Shown one piece after another: positions 47,182 through 64,000 of a DNA stretch of 64,000 nucleotides. The position numbers and the translations under genes were made by a program. Every line of letters begins with the position of its first letter. Position 1 is the first letter of the stretch. The notes beneath the pieces were generated by a model that worked only from the letters and a program-made list of their open reading frames with translations, made no database searches and was not told the origin of the DNA. Source of the DNA: Terrimicrobiaceae bacterium (GTDB lineage Bacteria; Verrucomicrobiota; Verrucomicrobiia; Chthoniobacterales; Terrimicrobiaceae); NCBI GenBank assembly GCA_044342325.1, contig JBIIPZ010000003.1, positions 1 through 64,000 of the forward strand. Reading direction: 5' to 3'.

Positions 47182-48822
47182 ATGATTCGGAGTTCTCACA
47201 CCATCCGCTTCAGACGCTTGATCCTTCACTTGGTATTGGGAGTCTTTGTCGCCCTGTCTGCCCGCCTGGCCGCACAGGACGCGAATCCTTTTATCGATGA
47301 GGAACCGCCGCCAGTCGTGGATCCCGAGCCTCCGCAGACATTTTCCATACGCGAATTCCGCGTGGTGGGCGCCAAGACACTTCCGACCGGAGCGGTGGAC
47401 AAGGCGCTCTACAGCCACACCGGGCCGGGCCGCACGCCGGAGGATGTCGAAAATGCCCGTATGGCCCTCGAGAAGGCCTACCATGATGAAGGCTACCAGA
47501 CCGTTTCCGTCTCCGTGCCGCCTCAAGGCGTGAATACCGGCGTCATTGTGCTGCAGGTCACCGAGGCGACCGTTGGACGCCTACGCGTAAAGGGTTCCCG
47601 CTTTTTTGACATCGAGAGGATCAAAAAAATGGCACCGGCGCTTGCAGAGGGCACGGTGCCGAATTTTAACGATGTGCAGCGCGACATCATCGCCCTCAAC
47701 CAGACAGCCGATCTCCAAGTCACTCCATCACTGGCTATTGGAAAAACACCGGGAACTGTCGATGTCGATCTGACGGTGAAGAACAAGTTTCCCCTGCACG
47801 GCAGCGTGGAGCTGAACAACCGCTACAGCACGAATACAACGCCCCTCCGCCTCGACGCCTCAGTGCGCTATGACAATTTATGGCAGATGGGTCACACGAT
47901 CGGCGCAGGCTTCCAGATCGCCCCGCAGCGCCCGAGCGACGCCCTGATTTTCTCCGGTTATTATATAGCACGCACGCCATCCATCGACTGGGTTGCGCTC
48001 ATGCTCCAAGCCACACGCCAGAACAGCGAGGTCTCCACACTCGGCGGCACCGACTCGCTCGGAAACGGCGAAATCTACGGCGGGCGCTTCCTTTTCAACC
48101 TCCCCGCCAAGACCGGATTCTACCACTCGGCCAGTATGGGCATTGACTACAAGGACTTTGCTCAAGATCTCGTTGTGGGCAACCAAACGGTTTCCAGTCC
48201 CCTCACCTACTGGCCGTTTTCGATCAACTACAACGCCAGCTCGATCGGCAAACACTACGAAACCGAGTTCGGTGCCGGCGTGACCTTCTCTTTCCGTGGA
48301 ACAGGCACGCAGGAGGCGATTGATTTCGACAACCGCCGCTACAATGCGAATGCGAATTTTTTCTACCTGCGCGGCAATCTGGCCCACACGCAGAAGCTGC
48401 CTTGGGATTTCCAACTCTTCGGCGAGGTGCAGGGCCAGGCGACGGCGAATCCCCTCGTGGACACCGAGCAATACAGCCTCGGCGGGCAATCCACCGTTCG
48501 CGGTTACCTCGAATCCGTCGTCACGGGCGACAATGCCATCGCCGGCACGCTGGAATTCCGCACTCCATCGCTCCTCGGTTGGCTTCCGAAAGGGAACGAG
48601 TGGCGCTTTTTCGTCTTCATCGACGCCGGCTACGCCATGCTCAACGATCCCCTCCCCGAGCAGACCTCGACCTTCAACCTCTGGAGTTACGGCGTCGGCA
48701 CCAGCATTCGTCTCGTGGACCACATCAATGGCGATTTCTTCATCGGCATTCCTCAGATCACCCAATCACCCTCCGAGGCCTACCAACCGCTCTTCTCCTT
48801 CAGCATCTCCGCAGAACTTTAA
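47182..48822 (+). CDS. ShlB/FhaC/HecB-family two-partner secretion translocator (TpsB)
   Basis: Signal peptide, POTRA-like segments (LEKAYHDEGYQTVSV, EATVGRLRVKG), conserved VRGY loop (LGGQSTVRGY), beta-barrel C-terminus; start placed at ATG 47182. Confidence 0.9.
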   Translation: MIRSSHTIRFRRLILHLVLGVFVALSARLAAQDANPFIDEEPPPVVDPEPPQTFSIREFRVVGAKTLPTGAVDKALYSHTGPGRTPEDVENARMALEKAYHDEGYQTVSVSVPPQGVNTGVIVLQVTEATVGRLRVKGSRFFDIERIKKMAPALAEGTVPNFNDVQRDIIALNQTADLQVTPSLAIGKTPGTVDVDLTVKNKFPLHGSVELNNRYSTNTTPLRLDASVRYDNLWQMGHTIGAGFQIAPQRPSDALIFSGYYIARTPSIDWVALMLQATRQNSEVSTLGGTDSLGNGEIYGGRFLFNLPAKTGFYHSASMGIDYKDFAQDLVVGNQTVSSPLTYWPFSINYNASSIGKHYETEFGAGVTFSFRGTGTQEAIDFDNRRYNANANFFYLRGNLAHTQKLPWDFQLFGEVQGQATANPLVDTEQYSLGGQSTVRGYLESVVTGDNAIAGTLEFRTPSLLGWLPKGNEWRFFVFIDAGYAMLNDPLPEQTSTFNLWSYGVGTSIRLVDHINGDFFIGIPQITQSPSEAYQPLFSFSISAEL

Positions 48823-48831: not shown

Positions 48832-50787
48832 ATGAAAACAACCGCATTCATCCGAACAGCCCTTCTCGCCGCCACGGCCCTTGTTTCCGTCACAGCGAAC
48901 TCACACGCCTGGTGGAACAAAGATTGGACCGCCCGCAGGCCCGTCACAATCGATACCACCAAGACCGGATTTGAAATCAGCGAACCGGTCGGCACCGCCA
49001 CCATCCTCCTGCGCCTCCACCAAGGAAACTTCGATTTCTCGACCGCCAAAGAGGACGGCACCGACATCCGCTTTGTCACCGAGGATGACAAGACACCCCT
49101 CGAATCCCGCGTGGAAAAATGGGACGCCCTCATGAACGAAGGCTTCGTCTGGGTCAAAGTCCCCGACATCAAGCCCGGCGCCCAAACCAAAATCTGGCTC
49201 TACAGCGGCAACCCCGAAATCACCGCTGAGGAAGCCGCAGACCCGCTCGCAGCCCACGACACCGACACCATCCTCGCCTACAACTTCACCGTCGCCACCC
49301 CAAAAGACGCCACAAAAAATGCCAATAACGCCACCTCCGGCGGCACGCTCTCCGAGGGTGCCCTCATCGGCCCTGGCATGCGTCTCTTGGGCAATACCGC
49401 TACCAAGATTCCCGGTTCGGAAACCCTCCGCGCCGATGCTGGCCAGCCCTTCACCCTCTCGACATGGTTGAAACAATCTAGCCTCAACGAAAAAGGCGTC
49501 CTCTTTGATTGGGGTGATGACTCCGCCCGCTTCCAGGTTGTTTTCCAATCCGGCGCGCCGGTCGTTGTCATCAAATCCGCTTCCGGCACTTCCAAATCCA
49601 CACCCGCCGACCCAGTCGCTCCCAATGTCTGGAAACACATTGCCGTGGTCTCCGACGGTTCGAGCACGAAACTCTTCGTCGATGGCAAGGAATATTCCTC
49701 CGTCGCGGCAGGTCTCCCCGCCATCGTGGGCGACGCGACACTCGGCGCCGATGCGGATGGCAAAAACGGCCTCATTGGCGAAATTGACGAGTTCAGCCTC
49801 TCGAAAACCGCCCGCCCCGCAGGCTGGGTCCAACTCGCCTACACCGGCCAAGCCGGCAACGACGCCAGCACCAAGCTCGTCGCCCTCGGCGAAGGTGAAG
49901 GCGGGGCCAGCGCAGGCGGTCACGGCGGCGCGATGGAGCATGTCATGCTTTTCGGCGACATCGCCAAGAACATGATGTTCGACGGCTGGATCGCCATCGG
50001 AGTCTGCGTGATCATGATGGCAGCCGGCTGGACCGTTGCCGTCGTCAAATTCATTAACCTCGACAAAATCAAAAAAGGCAACGCCGAGTTCCTGCGCCTC
50101 TGGAAAGATGTCGCCACCGACCTCACCGCGATGGATCTCGACAACCCCGAATCCTCAAAAACATTCGGCGGCAAGATTGGCAAAAAAGGTCTCACCCTCC
50201 TCGCCGACTCCCCCCTCTACCACATCTACCATGTCGGCTCGGAGGAAATCCGCCACCGCCTCGGCTTCGGCAAAAACAAGGGCCAAGGTCTCTCCGCCCG
50301 CTCGATCCAAGCCATCCGCGCCTCGTTGGATGCCGCCCTCGTGCATGAACAGCACCGCTTGGGCAACGGCCTCGTCTACCTCACCACCAGCATCGCCGGC
50401 GGCCCCTATGTCGGCCTGCTCGGAACTGTCGTGGGCGTTATGATCACCTTCGCCATCATCGCGAAATCGGGCGAGGTGGATGTGAACTCGATAGCCCCCG
50501 GTATCGCCAGCGCGCTCCTCGCCACCACAGTCGGCCTGCTGGTCGCGATTCCCGCGCTTTTCATGTATAGCTTCCTGAATACCAGCATCAAACACACCGT
50601 TTCAGCCATGCAGGTATTCATCGACGAGTTCGTCGCCAAGGTCGCCGAATTCTACCCCACCCCAGGAGATTCGGCCCTCACGGTTCCCATTCGCCAAATC
50701 CGCACCCCAGAAGAGGCCGCCCGCTACGAGGAAACCAAAGGCGATGAGAATGCCGCCATCATGGACGGCCTCATCAAACGCAAATAA
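48832..50787 (+). CDS. DUF2341 + LamG/ConA-like + MotA/TolQ/ExbB fusion protein
   Basis: WWNKDWTARR, DGTDIRF, WVKVP (DUF2341-like); WKHIAVV...LFVDG...GEIDE (LamG-like); PYVGLLGTVVGVM, APGIASAL, VAIPA (ExbB). Confidence 0.88.
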   Translation: MKTTAFIRTALLAATALVSVTANSHAWWNKDWTARRPVTIDTTKTGFEISEPVGTATILLRLHQGNFDFSTAKEDGTDIRFVTEDDKTPLESRVEKWDALMNEGFVWVKVPDIKPGAQTKIWLYSGNPEITAEEAADPLAAHDTDTILAYNFTVATPKDATKNANNATSGGTLSEGALIGPGMRLLGNTATKIPGSETLRADAGQPFTLSTWLKQSSLNEKGVLFDWGDDSARFQVVFQSGAPVVVIKSASGTSKSTPADPVAPNVWKHIAVVSDGSSTKLFVDGKEYSSVAAGLPAIVGDATLGADADGKNGLIGEIDEFSLSKTARPAGWVQLAYTGQAGNDASTKLVALGEGEGGASAGGHGGAMEHVMLFGDIAKNMMFDGWIAIGVCVIMMAAGWTVAVVKFINLDKIKKGNAEFLRLWKDVATDLTAMDLDNPESSKTFGGKIGKKGLTLLADSPLYHIYHVGSEEIRHRLGFGKNKGQGLSARSIQAIRASLDAALVHEQHRLGNGLVYLTTSIAGGPYVGLLGTVVGVMITFAIIAKSGEVDVNSIAPGIASALLATTVGLLVAIPALFMYSFLNTSIKHTVSAMQVFIDEFVAKVAEFYPTPGDSALTVPIRQIRTPEEAARYEETKGDENAAIMDGLIKRK

Positions 50788-50793
50788 CCAATT

Positions 50794-51192
50794 ATGGACG
50801 CTGGCGACGACAAATCCTTCGACGACATCAATGTGACCCCGATGGTAGACCTCTACCTCGTGCTTTTGTTGATTTTTATCATCATGACCACAGCCGGAGT
50901 CCAGGGAGTGAAAATCGATCTCCCGAAAGGCAGCAAGGCCCCGGCTCTCGGCGGCCCCAAGGGAAAATCCATCACCATCAACAACGAGGGCAAGCTCTTC
51001 CTCGACACCGTGCCGGTGACCATCGCCGAACTCGAGGCCAAGCTCAATGAGCACAAATCCAAGGTGCCCGAGTTCCCCGTCGTCGTCCGTGGCGACCGCG
51101 CCACGCAATACATGATGGTCATGGAAGTCCTCGATGTGCTCGGACGCCTCGACATCAAGCAAATCGGCCTTGCCACCCAAGCGCCCAAGTAA
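50794..51192 (+). CDS. ExbD/TolR family protein
   Basis: INVTPMVDLYLVLLLIFII, VRGDRATQY. Confidence 0.92.
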   Translation: MDAGDDKSFDDINVTPMVDLYLVLLLIFIIMTTAGVQGVKIDLPKGSKAPALGGPKGKSITINNEGKLFLDTVPVTIAELEAKLNEHKSKVPEFPVVVRGDRATQYMMVMEVLDVLGRLDIKQIGLATQAPK

Positions 51193-51201: not shown

Positions 51202-51894
51202 ATGCCCGACGAAGAAGACGACGAGCCAAGTTTCTTTGCGAAGCACAAAATCAAGATCATCCTTGGTGGCGTTCTCATCGTTGCGTTGGGCATTTACTTC
51301 ATTGGCGCACCAAAATCGGCTCCGAAGAAAAAATCCTCCGGCCCGGTCATGATTTCCCTGCCGCCGCCTCCGCCACCACCTCCCCCGCCACCACCTCCTC
51401 CGCCACCCAAGGAGCAACCGCCCGAGCCCGACACGGTGAAAGAGGAAAAATTCACACCCGAGGAGGTTTCCGAGCCCGAACCTCAAGCCGCACCCGAACC
51501 CGCCCCGATGGGCACGAACCTCGAGGGCAACGGCCCAGACGCCTTCGGCCTCGCCAAAGGCGGCGGCAGCGGCATGATTGGAGGCACCGGCACAGGGAAA
51601 GGCGGCAAGAGTTCGAAATTCGGCGGCTATGCCTCCCAAGTCCAAGGCTCCGTCGTCCAAGCCCTCCGCAACCACAAAAAAACCAAAGCCGCCGCCCTCA
51701 ATGTCACCGCCCGTATCTGGCTGGACGCCACCGGCCGCGTGACCCGCGCCACCATCTCCGGTTCCTCCGGCGACCCCGCCACCGACGCCGCCCTCCGTAA
51801 CGAAATTCTCACCGGTCTGCAAATGCAGGCTCCCCCACCGGAAGGCATGCCGATGCCCATCGTCATGCGACTCAAAGCCACTCGACCCAACTGA
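51202..51894 (+). CDS. TonB-like protein
   Basis: N-terminal TM, polyproline tract, Gly-rich linker, TonB_C-like domain (WLDATGRVTR...SSGDPATDAAL). Confidence 0.82.
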   Translation: MPDEEDDEPSFFAKHKIKIILGGVLIVALGIYFIGAPKSAPKKKSSGPVMISLPPPPPPPPPPPPPPPPKEQPPEPDTVKEEKFTPEEVSEPEPQAAPEPAPMGTNLEGNGPDAFGLAKGGGSGMIGGTGTGKGGKSSKFGGYASQVQGSVVQALRNHKKTKAAALNVTARIWLDATGRVTRATISGSSGDPATDAALRNEILTGLQMQAPPPEGMPMPIVMRLKATRPN

Positions 51895-51898: not shown

Positions 51899-53977
51899 AT
51901 GAGCCTGCCCACCACACTTCGCCAACTCTCCGCAGCCACGCTGCTGGCCACCACCATCCCGCTCAGCGCGCAGGACTACACAGTTAGCGAACCCGCAAAA
52001 AACAAGATCGTCATCGACTACGCGCAGAATACGGCACCAGCCCCCACGCCTGCTCCAGTCGCTCAGCCGATCACCGACGCCCCTCTCCCGCCGGTTCCAA
52101 TTTCAACTCCAACGCCGCAACCATCGCCGACTCCCGCTCCTGAGCCTGCACCGGCAGCGACGCCTGAACCCAAGCCGATCAACACCACCGTCCAAGAAAC
52201 CCAATCGAACGCCGCGCCACTTCCCGTTGTCGACTCCCCGCTTCCCTCGACTCCATCCACCCCCACCGGCAATGTCACCATCAACCTCATCCAAAAACTC
52301 GTGAAACGCGGCATCCTCACCCAAGAGGAAGCTAACGAAATGATCCGCCAGTCGGAAGCCGAGGCCGAGGCCGTCCGCGCCCAGAGCCAGACCGACATGG
52401 TGGCCATCGCCCAGGCCGCCGCCGTTCAGGTCGTCGCCACATCCGCCCCCGCAGGTTCCGACCTCCCACCCTCCTCACCGGATGACATCCGCGTGACGCA
52501 CATCCCCCAACCCGTCAAGGATCAGATCAAAGAAGAGATCAAACTCGAACTCGCCACCAACCGCACACCTCGAGAAATCAACGCCGCACTGCGCCTTCCG
52601 AAGTGGGTTGAAAATGGCAAAGCCGCTTACGACCTCCGCGTGCGTTACGCCGGCACCTTCTTCCCGACCGGCAACGACGCCTCGGGCGCCTTCCCGAATT
52701 TCAATGCCATTAACACCGGCGCTCCCTTCGATACCACCGGCACCCAGTTCGCACCCCAGCTGAATGTTGACCAGAACCGCAACCAGTATCTCCTCCGCGC
52801 CCGCTTCGGCATGGACTTCGCCATGAGCGAAAACTTCTCCTCTGGCTTCCGCGTGGCCACCGGCAGCAACAACTCACCCGTCTCTACCAACCAAGGCATG
52901 GGCGTCGCCAACTCTGCCACCCAAGGCCAAGGCGGCAACTTCAGCAAATACGCCATCTGGCTCGACCGCGCCTTCATGCGCTACGATTTCAATGTCACCG
53001 AGGCCATCAAGACCACCGCGTGGGCCGGTCGTTTCGAGAACCCGTTCTTCAGCACCCGCCTGACCTGGGATGACGACCTCGGCTTCGACGGCGCCGCCCT
53101 AACCACCAAAGCCAATATCACAGAAAACTTCGCCCTCTTCGGCACTGGCGGCGCGTTCGTTGTTTACAACACCGACTTCAACTTCTCCTCCAACCAGCCA
53201 GCAAAATTCGCCAGTTACGACAAATACCTCATCGGTGGACAGGCTGGCTTCGAGTGGAAAATCGGCGAAGACCTGACATGGAAAACAGCCGTCGCCATTT
53301 ACTACTTCGACAATATCGAAGGCCAACTCTCCGATCCCTACACGCCCCTCACCGTCAACGACGCCGGCAACACGGATAACAGCCGTCCCTCCTTCGCCCA
53401 AAAGGGAAACACCTACATGGCCATCCGCGACATCGTTCCAGATGCCAGCAACGACTTCGGCGCGATCAACCAGTGGCAATACTACGGCCTTGCCACTGAG
53501 TTTACGGAACTCGCCCTCACCTCCCAGATCGACTACGATGGCTTTGAGCCCGTTCGCATTTCCCTCGTCGGCGAATATGTGCAGAACGTCGCCTATAACG
53601 AAACCGACATCAGCGCCATCGCCGTCAACAATCGCGGCGCGATCGACGAGAACGGTCTCACCGACATCGGAGCCTTCGAGGGCAGCCCCTACGGCTGGTT
53701 TGTCGATCTCCGCGTCGGCACGCCTGCCCTTACCAAACGCTGGGACTGGCTCCTCTCCGTCGGCTACCGCTGGATCGGTTCCGACTCCGTGGTTGACGGC
53801 TTCAACGACTCCGACTTCGGCGGAGGCGGCACCAACATGCAGGGCTTCACAGCAGCCGGCTTCCTCTCCCTCTCCGAGAATGTCTACCTCGGCCTGCGCT
53901 GGATGGGCTCCGAAAGCATCGCCGGACCGCAATACGACACCAATATCTTCTACCTCGAGCTCAACTCCAAATTCTAA
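51899..53977 (+). CDS. Putative outer-membrane porin with long periplasmic N-terminal extension
   Basis: Signal peptide, Pro/Thr-rich linker, NLIQKLVKRGILTQEEA helix, amphipathic beta-strands (DLRVRY, RARFG, WLDRAF), C-terminal beta-signal LELNSKF. Confidence 0.8.
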   Translation: MSLPTTLRQLSAATLLATTIPLSAQDYTVSEPAKNKIVIDYAQNTAPAPTPAPVAQPITDAPLPPVPISTPTPQPSPTPAPEPAPAATPEPKPINTTVQETQSNAAPLPVVDSPLPSTPSTPTGNVTINLIQKLVKRGILTQEEANEMIRQSEAEAEAVRAQSQTDMVAIAQAAAVQVVATSAPAGSDLPPSSPDDIRVTHIPQPVKDQIKEEIKLELATNRTPREINAALRLPKWVENGKAAYDLRVRYAGTFFPTGNDASGAFPNFNAINTGAPFDTTGTQFAPQLNVDQNRNQYLLRARFGMDFAMSENFSSGFRVATGSNNSPVSTNQGMGVANSATQGQGGNFSKYAIWLDRAFMRYDFNVTEAIKTTAWAGRFENPFFSTRLTWDDDLGFDGAALTTKANITENFALFGTGGAFVVYNTDFNFSSNQPAKFASYDKYLIGGQAGFEWKIGEDLTWKTAVAIYYFDNIEGQLSDPYTPLTVNDAGNTDNSRPSFAQKGNTYMAIRDIVPDASNDFGAINQWQYYGLATEFTELALTSQIDYDGFEPVRISLVGEYVQNVAYNETDISAIAVNNRGAIDENGLTDIGAFEGSPYGWFVDLRVGTPALTKRWDWLLSVGYRWIGSDSVVDGFNDSDFGGGGTNMQGFTAAGFLSLSENVYLGLRWMGSESIAGPQYDTNIFYLELNSKF

Positions 53978-53983: not shown

Positions 53984-54634
53984 ATGAAAATCAAAACTTA
54001 CGCCCTCCTGGCCGCAGCCGCCGTCCTCCTCGCGCCTATCCTCCTCGCGCCTATCCTCCACGCCGCCGAGGAAGACCCCACCGCAAAGTTCCGCGAAGCC
54101 CTCAAGGACACCATGCTCAAGCTCCGCGCCGCGCAAACCGACCTCGCCAACGCCCAAGCCGCCCAATACGCCGCCGAGGCCAAGGCGACCGAACTCACCG
54201 CGAAAACCGAGTCCCTCAACAAGGAACTCGCCAACGAGCGCAACACCTCCACCAACATGATCGCCGATCTCAATAAAAAGATCGCCGACCGCGACGGCTC
54301 GATCCTTGAACTCAACGCCGCCCTCGCCAAATGGAAAAAATCCTACGGCGAAGTCGCCAAACTCGCCTCCAAACGCGAAGGCCAACGTGCCACACTCGAC
54401 ACCAAACGCATCGAACTCGAACGCAAAGTCCAAGACGAACAACAAAAAAACATCGAGATGTATCAAGCCGGCATGGAAATCCTCGACCGCTACGAGAAAT
54501 TCGGCCTCGGCGACGCCATCCTCGCCCGCGAACCCTTCACCGCCGCCAAACGCGTCAAATTCCAAAACCTCGTCCAAGACCTCTCCGACAAACTCACCGA
54601 CGCCCGCATCCCCGCCGACGCCCCTGAAAAGTAA
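53984..54634 (+). CDS. Exported coiled-coil protein
   Basis: Signal peptide, A/E/K/L-rich helix, C-terminal EPFTAAKRVKFQNLVQD. Confidence 0.8.
   Translation: MKIKTYALLAAAAVLLAPILLAPILHAAEEDPTAKFREALKDTMLKLRAAQTDLANAQAAQYAAEAKATELTAKTESLNKELANERNTSTNMIADLNKKIADRDGSILELNAALAKWKKSYGEVAKLASKREGQRATLDTKRIELERKVQDEQQKNIEMYQAGMEILDRYEKFGLGDAILAREPFTAAKRVKFQNLVQDLSDKLTDARIPADAPEK
54024..54059 (+). repeat. 15-bp perfect tandem repeat, 2.4 copies, in frame
   Basis: TCCTCCTCGCGCCTA twice plus TCCTCC; encodes LLAPI-LLAPI-L. Confidence 0.9.
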
Positions 54635-54680: not shown

Positions 54681-55556
54681 ATGCTCCGCCAAACCACCCT
54701 CGCCCTCCTCGCCGCCACCTCACTCACCCTCCCAGCCCGTGCAGCCGACTCCGTCATCGCCCGTGCCGGCGACCGCGACATCACCGTCGCGCAAATCCAG
54801 CCCTACCTCTCCAGCCTTAGCGAAGCCGACCGCGCCGCCCTCAAGCAAAACCCCGCCGCCCTCAGCCAAGCAGTCCGAACCCTCATTCTCCAACAAGTCC
54901 TCCTCAAAGAAGCCAGCAACGCCGACTGGGACGATAAGCCCGACAACCAGGCCCTCCTCGCCCGCGTGCGCGACGCCGCCATCGCCGAGAGCTACCTCGA
55001 ATCCGTCACCAAAGTCCCCGCCGACTTCCCCTCGGATGCCGAAGTCAAGGAAGTCTACGACGCCCGCAAGGCCGAACTCACCCTCCCCAAGCAATACCGC
55101 CTCGCCCAAATCTTCATCGCCAACGGCACCGACCCCGCCAAAGCCAAGGCCAAAGCCGACGCCCTCGCCAAACAGGTAAAATCCGGCGACTTCGCCGCCC
55201 TCGCCAAAACCAACAGCGACGAACCCCGCAGCGCTGCCAACGGTGGCGAGATCGGACTCCTCCCCGAAGACTCTATCCAGCCCGCCATCCGCAAAGCTCT
55301 CACCGGCCTGGCCAAAGGCGCCACCGCCGGCCCCATCGAGCTCGGCGATGGACTCTACTTCGTCAAAATCCTCGACATCCAAGAACCCCGCACCGCCACC
55401 CTCGACGAGATCAAACCCCAAATCATCCGCGCCCTCCGCACCGAGCGCCAGAACCTAAACCGCCAAGCCTACCTCCAACGCCTCCAAGCCCAAGCCCCCA
55501 TCACCCTCGACGAAATCGCCTTACCCGCCCTCCTCAAACCAGACGACAAAAAATAA
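54681..55556 (+). CDS. Parvulin-type peptidyl-prolyl isomerase / PrsA-SurA-like chaperone
   Basis: Signal peptide from ATG 54681; YRLAQIF, FAALAKTNSDE, ANGGEIG. Confidence 0.87.
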   Translation: MLRQTTLALLAATSLTLPARAADSVIARAGDRDITVAQIQPYLSSLSEADRAALKQNPAALSQAVRTLILQQVLLKEASNADWDDKPDNQALLARVRDAAIAESYLESVTKVPADFPSDAEVKEVYDARKAELTLPKQYRLAQIFIANGTDPAKAKAKADALAKQVKSGDFAALAKTNSDEPRSAANGGEIGLLPEDSIQPAIRKALTGLAKGATAGPIELGDGLYFVKILDIQEPRTATLDEIKPQIIRALRTERQNLNRQAYLQRLQAQAPITLDEIALPALLKPDDKK

Positions 55557-55724: not shown

Positions 55725-58700
55725 ATGTTGAAAACCGGCCACCGCACCAAATACCACCTCCGCGCATTCGAGTTCCTCGCAGCGCGTAGGCGTTCGCGTG
55801 CCGTTCTCACATGCACCCTCCTCGCCTCCTTCCTCGCCACCATGCCCACCGCTGGTCTGCAAGCCGGCGACATCCTCCGTGGGGGAGCCAGCGGCGGTAA
55901 CGCCAAGCGAAACTCCGAAGCTCGTGCCAACGCCGGAGCCGCTGCAGCCGAAGCCGCCAAAGTCCGCGCCCAAGACCGCCTCGCCCGCACCACGAAGGCC
56001 GTCAACGACATGCGCGCTCTCCAAGCCTCCGCCCGCGCCGCAGCCGCAGCAAATACCATACCCAACGGCCTCATAGAAGGCGGCTTGAACCCGATTGTGG
56101 GAGGCACATGGACAGGAGCCAACCCGGCAACAGCCTCGGGCAACAATGTCAACATCAAGCAAACTGCCGCCCAAGCCCTTCTCCACTGGAGAACCTTCAA
56201 TGTCGGCAGCCAGACCACCCTCAACTTCGACCAATCCGCTGGCGGAGCCGACTCTGGCAAATGGATCGCCTTCAACAAAGTCTTCGATCCGGACGCCAAA
56301 CCCTCCCAAATCCGAGGCAAAATTAACGCCCAAGGCCAAGTCTACATCATCAACCAGAACGGCATCGTCTTCGGCGCCGGATCCCAAGTCAACGCCCGCA
56401 CCCTCGTCGCTTCTGCCCTTCCCATCAACGACAATCTGGTCGCCAACGGCCTCCTCAACAACCGTAATGCCGAGTTCCTATTCTCCAAGGATTTCGCAAA
56501 TGATCCCACCGCCACATTCGGCGATATCGTCGTTGAACGCGGGGCTCTCTTGAGCAGCCCCGAAGGCGAAGGCGGCAACGGCGGACGCATCATGCTCTTA
56601 GGCGCGAATGTCCGGAATGCCGGTGAAATTTCCACCCCCTCGGGCCAGTCAATCCTCGCCGCAGGCCTCCAAGTCGGTGTCGCAGCGCACGCCGAATCCG
56701 ACCCCAGCCTTCGAGGGCTTGATGTATGGGTTGGAGATGTTGGAAGTTACGGCGGCACTGTCGCCAATTCAGGCTTAGTCGAGTCCCAGCGCGGATCCAT
56801 CGTCGCTGTCGGCAAGCAAATCACCCAATCAGGCGCCCTGGAAAGCTCTACCTCCGTAAACCTCAACGGCCGCATCGATCTCCTCGCTAGCTATGGCGCG
56901 GTGGGCTTTCCGGGATACGATTCCTCCTTCCAACCTCCATTCTTGAATCGCTCGACCGGAATCGTGGAGTTTTCGTCTGGCAGCACAACTCGAATCCTTC
57001 CAGATTTCTCCTCCAACAAAAAAATCCCTGGCACCAAGCTCGCCCAGTCATCCCAAGTAAATATTGAGGGCTTGGGAATCCACTTTGCGGGAGGCTCTTC
57101 CCTCATCGCAACCGCGGGTGCCGTCGGCATCCGCGCGGGAATCTGGCCGTTTGTGGACACCAACAACGACGGCATTGTCACAAACGCTACTGAAGCCTCT
57201 CAGCAAATCAGCAACGGACGCCAACGCTTCCTCCTATCCGGGGGGCAGGTCAATATCGCCTCCAGCGCACTGCTCGATGCCAGCGGAACGATGGATGCCT
57301 TTGTGCCGCTTGCGAATAATTTCCTCGCCGTCCAACTCCGCGGTTCCGAACTCGCCGACTCTCCCCTCCAGCGCTCCGGCGGCCTTCGAGGCAAACCTCT
57401 CTTGGTCGATCTACGTCGCTCAGGCAGTTACGGAGGACGCGGCTGGATCGGCACGCCGCTCGGCGACCTGACCGGTTTTGCCAATATCACTGAACGCGAC
57501 ATCGCCCAACTAACTACTCACGGTGGATCGATCTCTATCTCCGCCGGCGATTCGGTCAGTGCCGCCACCGGGGCCACCATTGATGTATCGGGAGGCTATT
57601 TCACCCACGAGGGAGGGGCTGTCAGAACTTCACGCCTGTTGCGCGACGCCAATATTGTAGACATGCACAACGCCACCCCGGATGTCGAGTATGATGGCGT
57701 CTATGACGGCCTCTCGACTTTCGGCTCCTCAAAATGGGGAGCTACCGAAACCTACACCCACCCGCTTGCCCCGCTGGGTGGTGGAAACGAACGCTCTCAT
57801 GTTGAAGGCGCTGCCGCTGGAACATTGTCCATTACAGCGCCAAAAATGGCTCTGGCTGCCGAACTCCTCGGCCAATCGATCACCGGCCCTCGCCAGCAAC
57901 TCCTGCCGGCAGCCCAAGGAACGCTCCAAATCAAATTCCAAGGAGAGACCAAGTTTTCGACCGGTGGTTCCAACTTTGTTTTCCTGAACCAATCACCGGC
58001 ATCACCGAATGTCGTGTTTACCAACAACTCTCCAAGCGCAGCGCCTTTTGATTTCAAGGTGGTCGACGGAACTCCAACAGAGATGCCCTTCAGCGCAGGG
58101 GCCACTTTTGCGGTTTCGTCGGACTGGTGGGAGGAAGAGGAAGGAGGTTTCGGAAACATCGAAATCGAAAACACCGAAGGAGACATTACGGTGCCCTCTA
58201 GCAATCCCCTCGCCCTCCCCGCTGGCGGCTCGTTGAAAATCGCCGGTCGCAACATTTCGGTGAACTCGAATGTTTCCGCTCCCGGCGGATCAATCCTCAT
58301 GACCGCCTACAACTACACGCCGATGGCCTATGCCCGGGCAGCGGCGGAAGGCTTGTTCCAAAATGTCGCCGCCCCGGCCGCCATCGCAGGCCAAGGAACG
58401 GTCCGTGTCGCAAAAGGCGTATATTTGGATGTTGCTGGACAATTTGCTGATGAACGCCCCTCCTCGATCAATCCTTATCAAAACAAGGTTCTTCTTTCGG
58501 GCGGCACGGTCTCTCTCACGGGCTACTCGGTCTTGCTTGAACCCGGATCGCTGGTGGATGCCTCCGGTGGCGTTCGAGGCAGACCAAGTGGCAAATTCCA
58601 ATACGGCAACGGTGGCTCGATTTCCATACTGGCCGGAAAGGATCCATCCCTCTCGACCACGACGGGCGGCAAGCTACAGCTCGATGGCACGCTCCAAGCC

Positions 58701-61700
58701 TACTCGGTTGCCAAGGGCGGTTCCCTCTCGCTTCAGGCAAATACAGTTCAAATCGGCGGCACCTCTGCGCCCGAAGGCACGTTTTTCCTACAACCTGACT
58801 TTTTCCGTAAAGGAGGCTTTACGAATTACTCGGTCCAAGGCATTGGAGCTCGCGCCACAGATGGATCTTATGTGCCCGGCGTGAAAGTAGTCTCGGGAAC
58901 CGTCATCGAGCCAGTGGCAGAACAATGGCGTCACTTGCCCATGGCAGATGCGAAAAAACTATCAAATGCCATTGCTCGTCTCGGCGATCAGGAAAGCGCG
59001 CAAACCGCATCAATTTTGGCCGAAGCGGGATCATACTCGGATTTGAGCAGCTTGGGATTCCGCCGAATGGGCATGGATGCCCTGTTCCCTGTGCTTTTGC
59101 CCGAGGGTCTGCGCCAACCAGCCAGCCTGACACTTTCCGCTTCAGGTTATGACGATGCCTTCACCGAGGATCGGGTGGAAGCCCTCGGCATAGTGGATTT
59201 CCAAGAAGAAGCCAAGATTCTCACCGATGCAGGTGCAACTGTTCGGATGTCGGGTGATTTTGTTCGAGTCGCCGGAGAAATCAGCGCGCCGGGTGGCACG
59301 ATAGAAATAACCGGTCGGTCTTCATTCCGCCTCCCCCAAACGACCGTGGCCAGCTTTGCTTTGCCTACTGTCCACCTGACACCCTCCGCCAAGCTTTCTG
59401 TGGCGGGCAAAACAGTCCAACTCGATGACCCCTACACATGGAACGCCGGCATCATCCACCCCGGCGGCACAATCAAGATCTCGGGCAACATCCTCGCCGA
59501 ATCCGGATCTCTGCTCGACGCTTCAGGCACATCGGCCGTTCTGGATTTTCACCCCTCGCGCCTTGACCCGGAGCTTGTCGGCAAAGCTCCCGCCAACTCC
59601 GGTTTGAACTCGGCCCCATGGCAACGCCAGGCCGTTGCGGTTAGAGTGGACAGCGATGGCGGTCGCATCGAACTCTCGGGCTCGCAATTTCTTTATGCAG
59701 ACTCGACACTTCTGGCAAAAGCCGGTGGCGAAACGGCGGTTGGTGGAACTCTTTCAGTTTCCTCGGGGAGGTTCTACGCCTCGGGCGAATCCCGAACCGG
59801 CGCTGACACCAATCTCTTCCTGGCGGCAAGCGGCCAAGCCTCGCGCATTGCTTCCACCTCCACACTGTCGAATATTTCCAGCGGCCTGCTCGCCAGCTCA
59901 ACGCCGGACGCCTACCTTGCCTCCACACTCCTATCGGCCACGACAGGCTCTCAAGGCGTCGGGTTCTTCGCCATGGATCGTTTCATAAGCGGTGGATTCG
60001 ACTTCCTCGACCTCGGATTCAAATATTTCAAGGACGCCTCGCCGATTCCATACGGCGGCAATTTGGAATTTCTCGAATCTGTATCGATCAATGCCAAAGG
60101 TGCGGTTCGTCTCGCCGGTGGCGGGGTCATTCGCTCCACATTCCCTGTCTCCGTCTCGGCCCCCTATGTTGCCATCGGCCAGGAATTCCTCGCACCACTC
60201 AACCCCGCAGACCCCTACCAACCTTTCCGCGAATTCAACGCAGGCACAGGAGGAACTCCATCCTACAACTTCGCGCCTTCTTTGGGTGACGGCTCTCTCA
60301 CCGTCTCAGCGAAGCTGATCGATATCGGAACACTCGTCACCAGGGGAATCTCAAACACCAAGTTCACCTCGGAAGGCGATATCCGGGGCAACGGCATCGT
60401 CAGCGTTGCAGGCAAGCTCTCTTTCCAAGCCGCCCAGATGTATCCCACCACCGGCTCTCGCTTTGATGTGTTCGCCTACGACAGCGGTGCCACGAAAGGC
60501 TCGATCTCCGTCACCTCGACATCCACCCCCTCCCTTCCTCTTTCCGCCGGAGGCCGACTCCGCATGTTCGCCGACTCCATCCAGATCGCCGGAAATCTCC
60601 GCGCCCCGATGGGGTCGATTGTCTTGGGTTGGGATGGAACCGCCTCCTCCAAGCCAGAAAACATTGTTGTCGGCAGCACAGCCACCCTCTCAGCCACTTC
60701 CAGCTTGAGCTTGGCCAAGGGAGCATCCATTTCCGTATCGGGCGTCGATCCCACAACAGGAACTGAAATTCTTGTTCCCTACGGCATCAGCCCGGATGGC
60801 CTAACTTGGATCGATCCACGCGGCGTCGATATCACTGTTTCGGGCCTCCCAGACCGCGGTGTCAGCCTTGCAGGAAATAGCGTCGCCATGGATTCCAGCG
60901 CCACCATCGACCTGCGCGGCGGAGGCGATTTATTGGCCTACCGCTGGATTCCAGGCATCGGTGGATCGGCTGACCCTCTCGGCACTGCCACGCGCTCTTG
61001 GTCTTCGGGCTCGGAATACAATGCTGGCGACCTCGTGAGCCACAGCGGGAAAACATGGTCGGCCCGCCGCGATATCGACCCGACCGACTTCACATCCTCT
61101 CCCACGCCCTCCGAAAGCGTCTATTGGAGTCTCGTTCCCGAATCCTACGCCGTCTTGCCGGGAACAGCCCTTAACTTCTCTCCTTTCAACCCCTTCAACT
61201 CCGGCGTGAACTCTGGCAGCCTCTCGGGCGATCCAGGATTTGTCTCAAGCTCCTTGCGGGTTGGCGAGCAGGTCGAACTCCCCGCTTCAAGCGGACTTGC
61301 CGCGGGATCGCACACACTCCTGCCCAGACGCTATGCGATCCTTCCCGGAGCCTTCCTGGTTGTGCCTCAAAGCGGATCACTCACAAACACAAGCGCCGTC
61401 AGGTCCACCCGCAGCCCTGGGGCACTTAAATCAGCTCCTTCGAATACCCAAGCAGTCGAGATGGCGGAAGGCTCGCGCTTTGTCTCGGGGCGGACTCTCA
61501 ATGGACTTACCTCAACCACCGAAACCTCGCCCGTGCTCTCCCGCTTCGAGGTAGTCCCTCCGACCGTCATCGCTGACCGCGTGCAGTTCGACACCTACAA
61601 GGCCAATGAATTCCTCGCAGCGGCAGCAGCCCGACTTGACCTGCCTGAAACCCAAATGCTCCCAAAGGACTCGGCTCCGCTCCACATCCAAGGAAACCAC

Positions 61701-64000
61701 CGCCTCTCTCTCGAAGGAACAGTCCTCTCCCCCAGCGTTGTCGGAGGTCGAGGCGCGCGCGTGGACATAGGGAGTGATGCTAATATATATATCATTGGTG
61801 GAGAAGGAACAGCTCCGGGAGGAATCTCCGCCATTCTCTCAACGCCGATCCTGAACTCCTGGAAAGCGGACAGCCTATTCATTGGCGGTCTCCGTGAAAA
61901 ATCCTCCACTGGAACGACTGCCAGCATCCGGACCAATTCGATCACTGTTGCCAATGCCGGGGATACTCTCGAGGCACCAGAAATCACCTTGGCATCAAAG
62001 TCCAGCATCACCCTCTATGCCGGTTCCTCTCTCGCAAGCTCCGCACCTCCTTCGACTTCAGCTGAAAACATAGCCATCGCGGGCGATGGAAGTCTCCTGC
62101 GGGTTTCAGGGGATTCCTCCGCCTCCATCACTCGCACAGGCGCAACCTCCTCCTCGGCACCATCACTTTCCATCGGGGCCAATGCCCGCATTACAGGAAA
62201 AGGAGTGATATTGGATTCGACGAACGCCTCGATTATTGCCCCATCGTTGAACCTGGCAGCCTCGGCCCTTACTCTCGGAAGCGGTCAAATCAGCGTTCTT
62301 TTCGAGCCACAGCCCACCGGATTGGCGGGTTCTGTAGTAAACAATCATCTAACTCTTCAAGGCGATTTCCTGAGAAACGCCTTTGCCTCGAATGCACTCA
62401 CGCTACAAAGCTACCGCACGATCGACGTGTATGGCTCCGCAGCGTCCACTCATCAACTAAACTCGCTCAAACTGCTCTCTTCCGGTGTCCGTGGCTACAC
62501 ATCCGCAGGCACAAACATCCAACTCAACGCATCGGATGTCCTCTTCTCCAATCCGAACAGCGCTGCTGGACTTGCCAATCCCAGCACCAACACGGGGCTC
62601 CTTGCCATCACAGCACAGAACATCCGCTTCGGGGAGAACGGATTTGCAATCGCCGGATTCAACTCTCTTGATCTGGCATCAACCAACGGTGCCAAAGCCG
62701 ACTCCAAGGGGTCGTTCTCGACAACAGGAAGTCTTTCGCTCTCCACTCCGCTTCTGACAGCCTCCCAAGGTATATCCTACAGCCTCACGGCATCTTCTGC
62801 GTTATCGATGCTCGCATCAGGCCATTCCTCAACCATCACTCCGGGTCTTGGAGCAACGCTAAATCTCGCAGGTTCCTCGGTGAGTTTAGCGTCAAATATA
62901 GCTCTACCAAGCGGCTCACTCATTGCAACCGCCTCATCGGGAGACATCATTGTTTCAGGAACCCTGATGGCAGAGGGAACTGCGAAAAATTTTTATGATG
63001 TGACCCGATTTACCGATGCAGGAGCCATCGAGTTGAACGCCAAGGCCGGTAAAGTGACACTCGCCAACGGCAGTCGTGTTTCGGTCGCCGCTTCTTCCGC
63101 AGGCGGCAACGCAGGTTCGCTGACTATCAAATCTCCGAGCGGAATTTTTGTGAATGATGGGCTCATCTCCGGTGCCGCAGGTCTCGCCGGACTCGCTGGC
63201 ACATTCTCACTCGATGCAGGAACAATCGCCTCATTTGCCGATCTTTCAACCGATCTTGCCTCATCCGGCTTCAGCCGCGAACAAAACCTGCGAGTGCGCA
63301 ATGGCGATATAGCAATTGATCAAAATCTGACCGTTCAGAAATTCACCCTTTCCACAGATAATGGCGGAATTGTTGTGAATGCTCGCATTGACGCATCAGG
63401 TCAGACTGGTGGTCGGATCGAACTCATTGCGCGGAACAATCTAACCCTTTCGCCAACTGGAAGCCTGACCGTGGCGGCCCAGCGCTTCAGCAATGCCGGA
63501 AAAGGTGGCCACATCCACCTGGAGGCAGGCTCGGCGGTCAATGGATCTCCAAACACCGCCGCCCTCCTCGATCTCCAATCTGGTTCTAACATCAACCTCT
63601 CAGTCTCCGAGTTCGTCGCGGGCGATTACCTCACCGCCGGGTCCAGCGCCTTCAGCGGCAAATTCCAAGGAACCCTCCACCTCCGCGCTCCACGAAGCGG
63701 CAACGATGTCCGCATCGACCGGATAGACTCCACCATCACCGGAGCCTCAGCCATCTCGGTGGAACCATTCCGAGTCTACGAACCGGCTGGCGGCACCATG
63801 AACATTGTCTTGAGGAATACTATCAACACAGACAACACCTCGTTCATGAACGCTGGCGAAGCTGCGATGCTTGCCCGTCTTCTCCCCAGTGGGAGCACAT
63901 TGGGAAGCGCTCTAGCCATCACTCCAGGTGTTGAAATCCTCAACCGCACCGGCGACCTCACTCTAGGCCTGGCCAACAACTCAAACGCAGGAAGCACCAA
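55725..64000 (+). CDS. Giant filamentous-haemagglutinin-family exoprotein (TpsA), at least 2758 aa, 3' end outside the window
   Basis: Manual translation from ATG 55725: extended signal peptide, then a TPS domain (KQTAAQALLHWRTFNVG...GQVYIINQNGIVFGAGSQVN). The same frame reads as protein where spot-checked (57156, 60960, 63960). No ORF-track entry lies in this frame, consistent with one uninterrupted ORF. Confidence 0.9.
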   Translation, partial: MLKTGHRTKYHLRAFEFLAARRRSRAVLTCTLLASFLATMPTAGLQAGDILRGGASGGNAKRNSEARANAGAAAAEAAKVRAQDRLARTTKAVNDMRALQASARAAAAANTIPNGLIEGGLNPIVGGTWTGANPATASGNNVNIKQTAAQALLHWRTFNVGSQTTLNFDQSAGGADSGKWIAFNKVFDPDAKPSQIRGKINAQGQVYIINQNGIVFGAGSQVNARTLVASALPINDNLVANGLLNNRNAEFLFSKDFANDPTATFGDIVVERGALLSSPEGEGGNGGRIMLLGANVRNAGEISTPSGQSILAAGLQVGVAAHAESDPSLRGLDVWVGDVGSYGGTVANSGLVESQRGSIVAVGKQITQSGALESSTSVNLNGRIDLLASYGAVGFPGYDSSFQPPFLNRSTGIVEFSSGSTTRILPDFSSNKKIPGTKLAQSSQVNIEGLGIHFAGGSSLIATAGAVGIRAGIWPFVDTNNDGIVTNATEASQQISNGRQRFLLSGGQVNIASSALLDASGTMDAFVPLANNFLAVQLRGSELADSPLQRSGGLRGKPLLVDLRRSGSYGGRGWIGTPLGDLTGFANITERDIAQLTTHGGSISISAGDSVSAATGATIDVSGGYFTHEGGAVRTSRLLRDANIVDMHNATPDVEYDGVYDGLSTFGSSKWGATETYTHPLAPLGGGNERSHVEGAAAGTLSITAPKMALAAELLGQSITGPRQQLLPAAQGTLQIKFQGETKFSTGGSNFVFLNQSPASPNVVFTNNSPSAAPFDFKVVDGTPTEMPFSAGATFAVSSDWWEEEEGGFGNIEIENTEGDITVPSSNPLALPAGGSLKIAGRNISVNSNVSAPGGSILMTAYNYTPMAYARAAAEGLFQNVAAPAAIAGQGTVRVAKGVYLDVAGQFADERPSSINPYQNKVLLSGGTVSLTGYSVLLEPGSLVDASGGVRGRPSGKFQYGNGGSISILAGKDPSLSTTTGGKLQLDGTLQAYSVAKGGSLSLQANTVQIGGTSAPEGTFFLQPDFFRKGGFTNYSVQGIGARATDGSYVPGVKVVSGTVIEPVAEQWRHLPMADAKKLSNAIARLGDQESAQTASILAEAGSYSDLSSLGFRRMGMDALFPVLLPEGLRQPASLTLSASGYDDAFTEDRVEALGIVDFQEEAKILTDAGATVRMSGDFVRVAGEISAPGGTIEITGRSSFRLPQTTVASFALPTVHLTPSAKLSVAGKTVQLDDPYTWNAGIIHPGGTIKISGNILAESGSLLDASGTSAVLDFHPSRLDPELVGKAPANSGLNSAPWQRQAVAVRVDSDGGRIELSGSQFLYADSTLLAKAGGETAVGGTLSVSSGRFYASGESRTGADTNLFLAASGQASRIASTSTLSNISSGLLASSTPDAYLASTLLSATTGSQGVGFFAMDRFISGGFDFLDLGFKYFKDASPIPYGGNLEFLESVSINAKGAVRLAGGGVIRSTFPVSVSAPYVAIGQEFLAPLNPADPYQPFREFNAGTGGTPSYNFAPSLGDGSLTVSAKLIDIGTLVTRGISNTKFTSEGDIRGNGIVSVAGKLSFQAAQMYPTTGSRFDVFAYDSGATKGSISVTSTSTPSLPLSAGGRLRMFADSIQIAGNLRAPMGSIVLGWDGTASSKPENIVVGSTATLSATSSLSLAKGASISVSGVDPTTGTEILVPYGISPDGLTWIDPRGVDITVSGLPDRGVSLAGNSVAMDSSATIDLRGGGDLLAYRWIPGIGGSADPLGTATRSWSSGSEYNAGDLVSHSGKTWSARRDIDPTDFTSSPTPSESVYWSLVPESYAVLPGTALNFSPFNPFNSGVNSGSLSGDPGFVSSSLRVGEQVELPASSGLAAGSHTLLPRRYAILPGAFLVVPQSGSLTNTSAVRSTRSPGALKSAPSNTQAVEMAEGSRFVSGRTLNGLTSTTETSPVLSRFEVVPPTVIADRVQFDTYKANEFLAAAAARLDLPETQMLPKDSAPLHIQGNHRLSLEGTVLSPSVVGGRGARVDIGSDANIYIIGGEGTAPGGISAILSTPILNSWKADSLFIGGLREKSSTGTTASIRTNSITVANAGDTLEAPEITLASKSSITLYAGSSLASSAPPSTSAENIAIAGDGSLLRVSGDSSASITRTGATSSSAPSLSIGANARITGKGVILDSTNASIIAPSLNLAASALTLGSGQISVLFEPQPTGLAGSVVNNHLTLQGDFLRNAFASNALTLQSYRTIDVYGSAASTHQLNSLKLLSSGVRGYTSAGTNIQLNASDVLFSNPNSAAGLANPSTNTGLLAITAQNIRFGENGFAIAGFNSLDLASTNGAKADSKGSFSTTGSLSLSTPLLTASQGISYSLTASSALSMLASGHSSTITPGLGATLNLAGSSVSLASNIALPSGSLIATASSGDIIVSGTLMAEGTAKNFYDVTRFTDAGAIELNAKAGKVTLANGSRVSVAASSAGGNAGSLTIKSPSGIFVNDGLISGAAGLAGLAGTFSLDAGTIASFADLSTDLASSGFSREQNLRVRNGDIAIDQNLTVQKFTLSTDNGGIVVNARIDASGQTGGRIELIARNNLTLSPTGSLTVAAQRFSNAGKGGHIHLEAGSAVNGSPNTAALLDLQSGSNINLSVSEFVAGDYLTAGSSAFSGKFQGTLHLRAPRSGNDVRIDRIDSTITGASAISVEPFRVYEPAGGTMNIVLRNTINTDNTSFMNAGEAAMLARLLPSGSTLGSALAITPGVEILNRTGDLTLGLANNSNAGST

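Follow-up and report, generated by a model that had tools for sequence, protein, structure and literature searches.

The stretch of DNA analysed here, termed the window, comprises 64,000 nucleotides (positions 1 to 64,000 of contig JBIIPZ010000003.1, assembly GCA_044342325.1) from a Terrimicrobiaceae bacterium of the phylum Verrucomicrobiota. Its last part, from 47182 to 64000, holds eight genes, all on the plus strand, for a two-partner secretion (TPS) pair, a proton motor, an outer-membrane porin, and periplasmic partners. The first, tpsB (47182..48822), encodes an Omp85-type TPS transporter with a signal peptide, POTRA domains, and a barrel (PF03865, PF08479). The motor consists of subunit A (48832..50787), in which a signal peptide and periplasmic DUF2341 and LamG domains precede an ExbB/TolQ channel (Pfam DUF2341, Laminin_G_3, MotA_ExbB); subunit B (50794..51192; PF02472), an ExbD/TolR protein with a transmembrane aspartate, D19; and a TonB/TolA-like transducer (51202..51894; PF13103, TIGR01352). 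These are followed by a Porin_5 outer-membrane barrel (51899..53977; PF16930); a secreted coiled-coil protein of 216 aa with a signal peptide (53984..54634), which has no Pfam family and stands in the position of PA0697 of Pseudomonas aeruginosa; and a periplasmic parvulin-type peptidyl-prolyl isomerase (PPIase)/chaperone with a signal peptide and a Rotamase domain (54681..55556; PF13145). The last gene, tpsA (55725..64000; PF05860, TIGR01901), encodes a giant PdtA-like exoprotein of 2758 aa and runs off the window end, still open. By gene content and order, the cluster is the verrucomicrobial (Chthoniobacterales-like) version of the P. aeruginosa pdtA/pdtB-exbB2-exbD2-tonB4-PA0696-PA0697-PA0699 module.

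The intergenic gaps from tpsB to tpsA are 9, 6, 9, 4, 6, 46, and 168 bp, the last two with the parvulin ATG placed at 54681. Because the first six genes are separated by 4–9 bp, one transcript is suggested for them. A first-pass annotation, made from the letters alone, had called the same eight genes in a common orientation, with gaps of 4–9 bp across the first six, and had noted that the window holds no TonB-dependent receptor. Pfam and NCBIfam matches bear out the calls, the measured gaps agree, and Plug or TonB-dependent receptor families are matched by 0 of the 52 open reading frames (ORFs) scanned in the window (the 8 of the cluster and 44 others; outside the cluster, ORFs of at least 150 aa).

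The arrangement recurs widely. The porin finds 1911 representatives at E ≤ 1e-3 in a 50%-identity library, and a 20-sequence porin alignment (A2) retrieves 586 confirmed relatives in species-representative genomes; the analysis used the best 80 of these, with as much as 10 kb of flanking sequence. The titles of these 80 porin-anchored loci name 73 Verrucomicrobiota, including Chthoniobacterales, Terrimicrobiaceae, Prosthecobacter, Haloferula, and Akkermansiaceae, and 5 Alphaproteobacteria, with 2 unlabelled; the closest porins among these best 80 of 586 are from Chthoniobacterales and Terrimicrobiaceae (57–73% identity). The A2 pattern, [LG]GGTN[AM]KG[YF], and the choice of the best 80 skew the sample in favour of the window's relatives. 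All ORFs of the loci were searched with the window proteins, and the denominators that follow count the loci with enough flank. The TonB-like protein is found in 54/54 loci, ExbD in 52/52, the ExbB fusion in 51/51, TpsB in 46/46, and the coiled-coil gene in 76/77 (absent only in L076). A core of six genes, encoding TpsB, the LamG-fused ExbB/TolQ, ExbD, the TonB-like protein, the stalked Porin_5 barrel, and the coiled-coil protein, is thus almost invariant, and the arrangement is far from chance, since dozens of genomes show this order. The parvulin and the giant TpsA usually adjoin this core. The parvulin is accessory, being found in 47 of 73 loci. TpsA lies within 10 kb in 29 of the 35 loci with full flanks (not in L012, L017, L019, L036, L058, and L073), and the position of its gene varies, being divergent and upstream in L004, L005, and L016. 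Six loci carry two exbD genes. A TonB-dependent receptor is encoded by 0 of 108 flanking ORFs of these relatives.

Some relatives carry further features of their own. Two copies of the module occur per genome in two metagenome-assembled genomes (L002 and L007 in one, L022 and L023 in the other), and the parvulin is encoded in only one copy of the L002/L007 pair. At the usual place of tpsA, L058 encodes a 2930-aa protein (L058:13120-21909) that lacks a TPS domain and combines HYR, 5'-nucleotidase C-terminal, and Calx-beta domains with two of the choice-of-anchor I type; the Pho-box genes of L012 likewise include one for a choice-of-anchor I protein. Prosthecobacter-type loci (L031, L033, L041, L048, L053, L056, and L058) have genes for Calx-beta repeat proteins of ~1000–1200 aa directly 5′ of tpsB and co-oriented with it.

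A separate view of the association comes from a plasmid collection that was searched once with the window porin and once with TpsB. The porin matches 12 plasmid records: two each from Klebsiella, Burkholderia, Cupriavidus, and Variovorax, and one each from Methylosinus, Ralstonia, Methylomagnum, and Aquabacterium. TpsB matches 87, and its top 12 (33.6–45.8% identity, 239–449 bits) are exactly the 12 porin-bearing ones; the next-best plasmid TpsB (27.7% identity, 155 bits) belongs to a plain TpsB-TpsA pair without motor or porin. The TpsB subtype and the porin are therefore specific to each other in both directions. Gene annotation was opened for 5 of the 12 porin-bearing records, and none of these five annotated proteobacterial loci includes a TonB-dependent receptor. 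The Klebsiella quasipneumoniae plasmid reads filamentous haemagglutinin (FHA)-family protein, TpsB, a 612-aa ExbB, ExbD, TonB, putative porin, hypothetical, YbjN, PPIase, hypothetical, LysR. In Methylosinus, genes for an STN-domain protein, a sigma factor, and FecR are followed by the same set and a TpsA of 4128 aa, and in Cupriavidus the module adjoins a type II secretion system; both plasmids share the gene order of the Klebsiella one. Aquabacterium, with a porin of 27% identity, shows a permuted order (TpsB-TpsA-motor-porin-hypothetical), two ExbD, and no annotated parvulin. In Methylomagnum, the porin gene adjoins phoU and a gene for a PstS-type protein, and the subtype TpsB/TpsA genes lie 8 kb off on the other strand. 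The 7 further records have TpsB and porin on the same strand ~3.3 kb apart, a spacing that fits room for the motor genes.

The best-described counterpart is that of P. aeruginosa. In strain PAO1, the genes are PA0690 (pdtA), PA0692 (pdtB), exbB2, exbD2, tonB4, and PA0696, a "putative outer membrane porin" (PMC7035377, PMC4971064), with PA0697 a helical secreted protein, PA0698 of the YbjN family, PA0699 a PpiC PPIase, and PA0701 a LysR protein (PMC4971064, PMC7035377, PMC2729926). Transcription from phdA to PA0701 proceeds from a single promoter (PMC7035377, PMC4971064), and the motor and downstream genes are still termed uncharacterised (PMC7035377, PMC9769906). Associations of tpsB with exbBD and PA0696 in other proteobacteria were noted by Llamas and colleagues in 2009 (PMC2729926). 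The Klebsiella layout agrees gene for gene with the PAO1 layout of the papers, Porin_5 proteins of Pseudomonas spp. are 59–61% identical to the Klebsiella porin, and the Klebsiella locus is in turn homologous to the window in its porin, TpsB, coiled-coil protein, ExbB fusion, and part of TpsA. The link to P. aeruginosa thus runs through the Klebsiella (L081) and Methylosinus (L082) loci and the annotation in the papers, not through the PAO1 sequences themselves. The window and PA0690–PA0699 share the same components in the order TpsB-ExbB-ExbD-TonB-porin-helical protein-PPIase, plus a giant TpsA; the P. aeruginosa cluster, which is PUMA3-regulated, is controlled by phosphate starvation, and the window has Pho-box-like sites. 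The two differ in phylum and in the place of tpsA, which comes after the operon in the window, whereas pdtA comes before it in P. aeruginosa. The window also lacks phdA, YbjN (PA0698), the LysR gene, and the vreAIR signalling genes.

These results bear on the remaining claims of the first-pass annotation. The P. aeruginosa parallel that it drew is in print, with pdtB-exbB2-exbD2-tonB4-PA0696-PA0697-PA0698-PA0699 described as one operon (PMC4971064, PMC7035377), and its view that the arrangement is not unique agrees with an association published since 2009 (PMC2729926). It knew of no description in Verrucomicrobiota, and literature searches found none there or outside the PUMA3 papers, nor a paper explaining the motor. 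Co-occurrence of motor and porin with this TpsB/TpsA subtype, a check it had named beforehand, holds in both directions, and an ordinary receptor just downstream, which it had named as counting against its reading, is absent from the 108 flanking ORFs and the five annotated proteobacterial loci; neither check refutes that reading. The reading itself, a PMF-energised machine across the envelope that would export, move, or retract the giant exoprotein or import through the porin, is a possible one. The phosphate link and the plug-less fold of the porin, both treated below, were not part of it.

The motor is of a Tol/Ton-like kind. In subunit A, the MotA_ExbB channel domain (PF01618) scores 95 bits, and NCBIfam places TolQ (104 bits) before ExbB (71 bits), below every equivalog cut-off. 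Its model (predicted local distance difference test, pLDDT, 79) has a beta-sandwich ectodomain at residues 30–350 (pLDDT ~90), whose structural matches are generic ConA-like lectin folds, and then TolQ-like helices that TolQ structures match with a TMt of 0.78–0.86. The same DUF2341-LamG-ExbB fusion is present in the Klebsiella and Aquabacterium loci. Subunit B matches ExbD (PF02472) with E 2e-25 and 89.8 bits in Pfam, and in NCBIfam TolR ranks above ExbD with 89.5 bits, below cut-off; D19 is kept in 61/61 aligned module ExbD proteins. The TonB-like protein scores 26.9 bits against a cut-off of 22 for TonB_2 (PF13103) and 33.9 against 27.1 for TIGR01352, with a weak NCBIfam match to TolA. It is laid out as an N-terminal transmembrane helix, a poly-proline spacer, a Gly-rich stretch, and a C-terminal TonB domain (alignment A3, 26 sequences). 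A second, ordinary ExbB-ExbD-TonB set lies on the minus strand at 19177–21457, with no receptor gene adjoining: ExbB at 20645–21457, ExbD at 20201–20638, and a Pro/Thr-rich TonB with TonB_2 and TonB_C matches at 19177–20199. Since this ordinary set exists in the same window, the cluster motor is taken to be a dedicated paralogue.

The porin matches PF16930 with 578.3 bits (cut-off 22) over model positions 2–535 of 535, and a search of solved structures by sequence found no relative. Its structure model, built from a 41-sequence alignment (A1), has a pLDDT of 76, a predicted template-modelling score (pTM) of 0.66, and a barrel mostly above 90. Residues 1–124 comprise the signal peptide and a disordered Pro-rich stretch of ~100 residues, and modelled helices follow at 125–136, 142–177, and 204–221. 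The linker around 196–203 carries the most conserved periplasmic motif, with the consensus VRVxYVP, in which V199 and P203 are nearly invariant; this strand is a candidate TonB box. The barrel spans 240–691 with 16 strands and no plug in the model, which differs in both respects from a TonB-dependent transporter with its 22 strands and N-terminal plug. In structure comparisons the model comes closest to OmpM1 of Veillonella (8bys, E 5.5e-15, TMt 0.69–0.73), MOMP, OmpF/OmpC, and DcaP of Acinetobacter (6eus, E 8e-10). The stalked trimeric porins OmpM1 and DcaP likewise have a 16-strand barrel after a periplasmic helical stalk, as the model predicts for the module porin; they differ from it in sequence (12–15% identity), and no SLH domain was found on the module porin. 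To our knowledge, neither OmpM1 nor DcaP is encoded with a motor or a TPS pair. The Methylomagnum porin, with no motor annotated nearby, could have lost the candidate TonB box; it keeps the motif, a result that gives support neither way.

The remaining proteins of the cluster are a coiled-coil protein, a parvulin, and the TPS pair itself. The coiled-coil protein matches no Pfam family and, in the ESM Atlas, unnamed proteobacterial clusters and generic coiled-coil folds only; its homologues occur in both Verrucomicrobiota and Proteobacteria and share a conserved block, AREPF...RVK...QDY, at the C-terminus (alignment A4). The parvulin matches Rotamase_2 (PF13145) with E 4e-19. TpsB has matches to ShlB (PF03865, E 7e-17) and POTRA_2 (PF08479, E 7e-12), and its translation contains STVRGY, with the VRGY that we take to be the conserved loop-6 motif of TpsB proteins. 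Its N-terminal stretch ahead of POTRA1 is short, rich in Pro and Ala, and variable, and contains no conserved helix. In TpsA, the TPS domain went undetected in a Pfam scan of the whole giant ORF and is found when the first 1000 aa are scanned alone (PF05860, E 6.3e-18, 66 bits against a cut-off of 33.5); NCBIfam gives TIGR01901 with E 4.5e-18 and 64.9 bits (cut-off 29.1). The annotated proteobacterial module TpsA proteins have 4121–4128 aa, and that of Methylosinus is collinear with the window TpsA (26.6% identity over 2715 aligned columns, E 1e-136), as is that of L078 (27% identity); the Klebsiella and Aquabacterium proteins give partial matches in their C-terminal parts. The family shares a conserved mature N-terminus (A-GDILRGG) and then a ~90-aa Ala-rich helical stretch ahead of the TPS domain. 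This segment, at 55725–56120 in the window (residues ~45–130), recurs in the same region of 51 related TpsA proteins and may be a periplasmic docking segment. A CBM_5_12 match in TpsA is sub-threshold, and DUF3739 is found at the C-termini of proteobacterial TpsA proteins.

The two promoter gaps of the cluster, before tpsB and between the parvulin gene and tpsA, share a repeat of 11-bp period, TGTNAC-N5-TGTAAC. Two copies lie in the 470-bp gap 5′ of tpsB: repeat 1 (GGTTAC-N5-TGTAAC, 46898..46914, plus strand), 268 bp from the tpsB ATG, and repeat 2 (TGTGAC-N5-TGTAAC, 47116..47132, plus strand), 50 bp from it. These two defined the pattern. Repeat 3 (TGTGAC-N5-TGTAAC, 55565..55581, minus strand) lies in the parvulin-tpsA gap, the one other gap of any size in the cluster, 144 bp 5′ of the tpsA ATG, and is the sole window match not used in defining the pattern. 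The pattern has exactly 3 matches in 64 kb, all in these two gaps, and a mean of 0.00 in shuffles; with one mismatch allowed there are 6 strand-hits at 4 places, where 0.82 would be expected. In E. coli, the Pho box has the consensus CTGTCAT-A(AT)A(TA)-CTGT(CA)A(CT), and the element found here is termed Pho-box-like because listed PhoB sites include the half-sites TGTAAC, TGTCAC, and TGTGAC (PMC3465305). A one-mismatch copy is also present at 48889–48905 (minus strand), inside the start of the ExbB-fusion gene.

The element is shared by relatives. Between −350 and +60 relative to the estimated tpsB start, 24 of 46 loci carry a loosened form, where ~1.6% would be expected from 51 sites in 1.27 Mb overall. 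The element is also found 5′ of tpsA in L002, L014, and L030 and 5′ of tpsB in the alphaproteobacterial L078, and in L012 it lies 143 bp 5′ of an alkaline phosphatase gene (PF00245) and 51 bp 5′ of a calcineurin-like phosphoesterase gene. Neighbouring genes point the same way in several loci: pstS-pstC-pstA-pstB, all above NCBIfam cut-offs, stand directly 5′ of tpsB and in its orientation in two loci (L036 and L073); L034 and L019 encode PhoB-like regulators upstream (below cut-off); and L079 and L020 have genes for PstS-type proteins beside the module. In P. aeruginosa, the operon is PhoB- and VreI-dependent, with PdtA, PA0696, and PA0698 among the proteins most enriched at phosphate limitation (PMC4971064, PMC7035377, PMC9769906, PMC5422565), and this version is strongly produced in phosphate limitation and infection (PMC7035377, PMC9769906). 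The module probably responds to phosphate shortage, and this link appears ancient. The predicted Pho control in Verrucomicrobiota would be an addition to present knowledge.

We infer that the parts work as a single apparatus across the envelope, which a shortage of phosphate would switch on. The account tentatively favoured here, as a possible one, is the scavenging of phosphorus during starvation on the pattern of HxuABC. In Haemophilus influenzae HxuA-HxuB-HxuC, a TpsA couples to a TonB-dependent importer, and the surface TpsA frees the nutrient (PMC5422565). By analogy, a PhoB-type regulator would turn on both promoters of the cluster when phosphate is short. TpsB, with the parvulin aiding in the periplasm, would export and display the ~4000-aa beta-helical TpsA. 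The proton-driven ExbB/ExbD-type motor would act, by way of the TonB-like protein, on the N-terminal domain of the porin in the periplasm, with the conserved VRVxYVP strand as candidate TonB contact and the coiled-coil protein as candidate adaptor. A phosphorus-containing substrate, caught or freed at the surface by TpsA, would then enter through the porin. The invariant ExbD aspartate (61/61), the 4 bp between the TonB stop and the porin start, and the conserved porin N-domain are counted in favour, as are the second, ordinary motor set of the window and the lack of a TonB-dependent receptor among the 52 window ORFs and 108 flanking ORFs scanned. The likeness to HxuABC lies in a TpsA/TpsB pair encoded beside an energised outer-membrane importer, whose counterpart here would be the porin; the differences are that HxuC is a plugged TonB-dependent transporter served by the general TonB, whereas the module has a plug-less porin and a dedicated motor, and that the nutrient is haem there and would be phosphorus here. 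A bolder form of the idea, which we regard as rather unlikely, is that a Tol/Ton-like proton motor with its own lectin-like periplasmic domain operates, jointly with a TPS transporter, a stalked porin that has no plug. Plugged TonB-dependent transporters and Tol-dependent import would then be joined by a third energised passage of the outer membrane, one that is conserved between Verrucomicrobiota and Gammaproteobacteria and wins phosphorus with the help of a giant surface fibre.

Several points weigh against motor-driven phosphorus uptake through the porin. The main weakness is the modelled fold, that of a plug-less 16-strand general porin. Such a barrel normally passes small solutes without energy, we know of no TonB-gated channel of this type, and none is known to need or accept TonB energy; a classical TonB-gated mechanism is therefore less obvious for the porin. 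The motor scores nearer TolQ/TolR than ExbB/ExbD, and no role is assigned to its LamG-DUF2341 domain. Family scans of TpsA recognise no catalytic or phosphate-related domain. The Pho-box-like sites are sequence predictions, and two of the three in the window defined the pattern. Most flanking genes of the relatives are unrelated, and genes for sulfate (CysT/W/A; L022, L024) and molybdate-type (ModB; L018) ABC transporters lie downstream of the module, so some of the adjacency to phosphate genes may be chance; the sulfate, molybdate-type, and pstSCAB neighbours may reflect an oxyanion theme, or chance. Near the Methylomagnum porin no motor is annotated, in a gene table (PLSDB) that is incomplete, and this porin retains the N-domain motif all the same. 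The best 80 of the 586 porin relatives tilt towards close kin of the window. In zebrafish, PAO1 single mutants in tpsA, tpsB, tonB4, and PA0696 are unchanged in virulence (PMC2729926).

The motor may instead serve secretion, a somewhat doubtful alternative in which the Tol/Ton-like motor and the TonB-like protein would act on TpsB or on the transiting TpsA by opening the transporter or by pulling, holding, anchoring, or tensioning the chain. The LamG domain, coiled-coil protein, and parvulin would then handle unfolded chain, and the porin would be a structural partner or second conduit. The place of tpsB as first gene, 9 bp from the motor gene (46/46 loci), agrees with this, as does the lack in TpsB of a conserved N-terminal helix that could act in the way of FhaC, whose N-terminal helix is a known plug. 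The GDILRGG N-terminus and Ala-rich helix of TpsA offer a possible periplasmic docking site; a parvulin chaperone is encoded in 47/73 loci; and the passenger is giant (>2758 aa here, 4121–4128 aa in annotated proteobacterial loci). Precedents exist in Par27 of Bordetella, a parvulin that is the periplasmic chaperone of FHA, for the handling of a TpsA, and in Oar/PopC of Myxococcus for TonB-dependent protein export, although neither is known to be encoded within a TPS-motor-porin operon. Secretion of TpsA, however, gives no role to a porin as conserved as TpsB, leaves phosphate regulation unexplained by export mechanics alone, and is at odds with the 6 of 35 full-flank loci in which tpsA is missing within 10 kb. 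TPS export is moreover described as requiring TpsA and TpsB alone in a review (PMC5422565) in which the term ExbB does not occur.

An improbable reading is that of a Tol-Pal-like tether, in which a TolQ/TolR/TolA-type motor bridges the inner and outer membranes by way of the stalked porin and the coiled-coil protein and stabilises or remodels the envelope at the fibre anchor or in phosphate starvation, with no motor-controlled passage of substrate. Its appeal lies in the best family scores (TolQ 104 bits, TolR 89.5 bits, weak TolA for the third protein), the fit of TolQ structures to the helical part of the motor model (TMt 0.78–0.86), and OmpM1, a stalked "outer membrane attachment porin", as best structural match of the porin. 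The Tol-Pal genes run tolQ-tolR-tolA-tolB-pal-cpoB, and the module parallels this order of motor, motor, transducer, outer-membrane protein, and coiled-coil protein. The Tol matches are all far below curated cut-offs, however; TolB and Pal families are matched by 0 of the 8 cluster proteins; Pfam detects no peptidoglycan-binding domain on the porin; and a tether does not explain the strict bond to one TpsB/TpsA subtype. The LamG-DUF2341 ectodomain of the motor and the tie to a TPS pair also set the module apart from Tol-Pal. Very improbable is an island of separate systems under common Pho regulation, in which a TPS pair, a spare Ton system for receptors elsewhere, and a phosphate-type diffusion porin are co-regulated and physically independent. 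The Pho-regulon genes that several relatives have near the module (pstSCAB, alkaline phosphatase, 5'-nucleotidase), the Methylomagnum porin and TPS genes without an annotated motor, and the unchanged zebrafish virulence of the PAO1 single mutants (PMC2729926) would suit such independence. It is opposed by the invariant order with 4–9 bp gaps across two phyla, by the mutual specificity of TpsB and porin, by a LamG fusion, a coiled-coil protein, and a TpsA family that are each module-specific, and by the ordinary ExbB-ExbD-TonB set already in the window.

Upstream of the cluster lies a housekeeping region. A tRNA-Glu gene (anticodon CTC, 46638–46712) lies between leuS and the cluster and forms the upstream border of the promoter region; further upstream are leuS, a UvrD helicase gene, and other housekeeping genes. 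An Rfam scan of 44000–64000 found nothing beyond the tRNA, a sigma-70 promoter scan of 46400–56000 gave 0 sites, and the count of terminator-like sequences over 46400–56000 was not above that of shuffled sequence. Between uvrD and leuS, a match to a small addiction-module antitoxin family (Unstab_antitox) lies at the end of a long spurious ORF (~43320–43820, minus strand); an ORF of 101 aa at 43320–43625 adjoins it, and the two may be a toxin-antitoxin pair. At 13279–15003, a 574-aa ORF joins a low-molecular-weight phosphatase (residues 9–144) to a serine hydroxymethyltransferase (168–544), as a fusion or as two genes read through.

Two-partner secretion is, in the textbook view, independent of any envelope energy source. 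In at least two phyla, the TPS subtype described here is always accompanied by a porin and a proton motor of its own. The arrangement was already known in P. aeruginosa and a few proteobacteria, and a new phylum is added here. Also new are the invariant core of six genes, the two-way specificity of TpsB and porin, the 586 matches in species representatives, the predicted stalked plug-less fold of the porin, and a TolQ-like motor with a lectin-like ectodomain. Harmless carriers that can be cultivated include Prosthecobacter, Chthoniobacter, plant-associated Pseudomonas, and Methylosinus. Should the motor drive uptake or the handling of the fibre, the module would have a bearing on phosphorus cycling by freshwater and soil Verrucomicrobiota.

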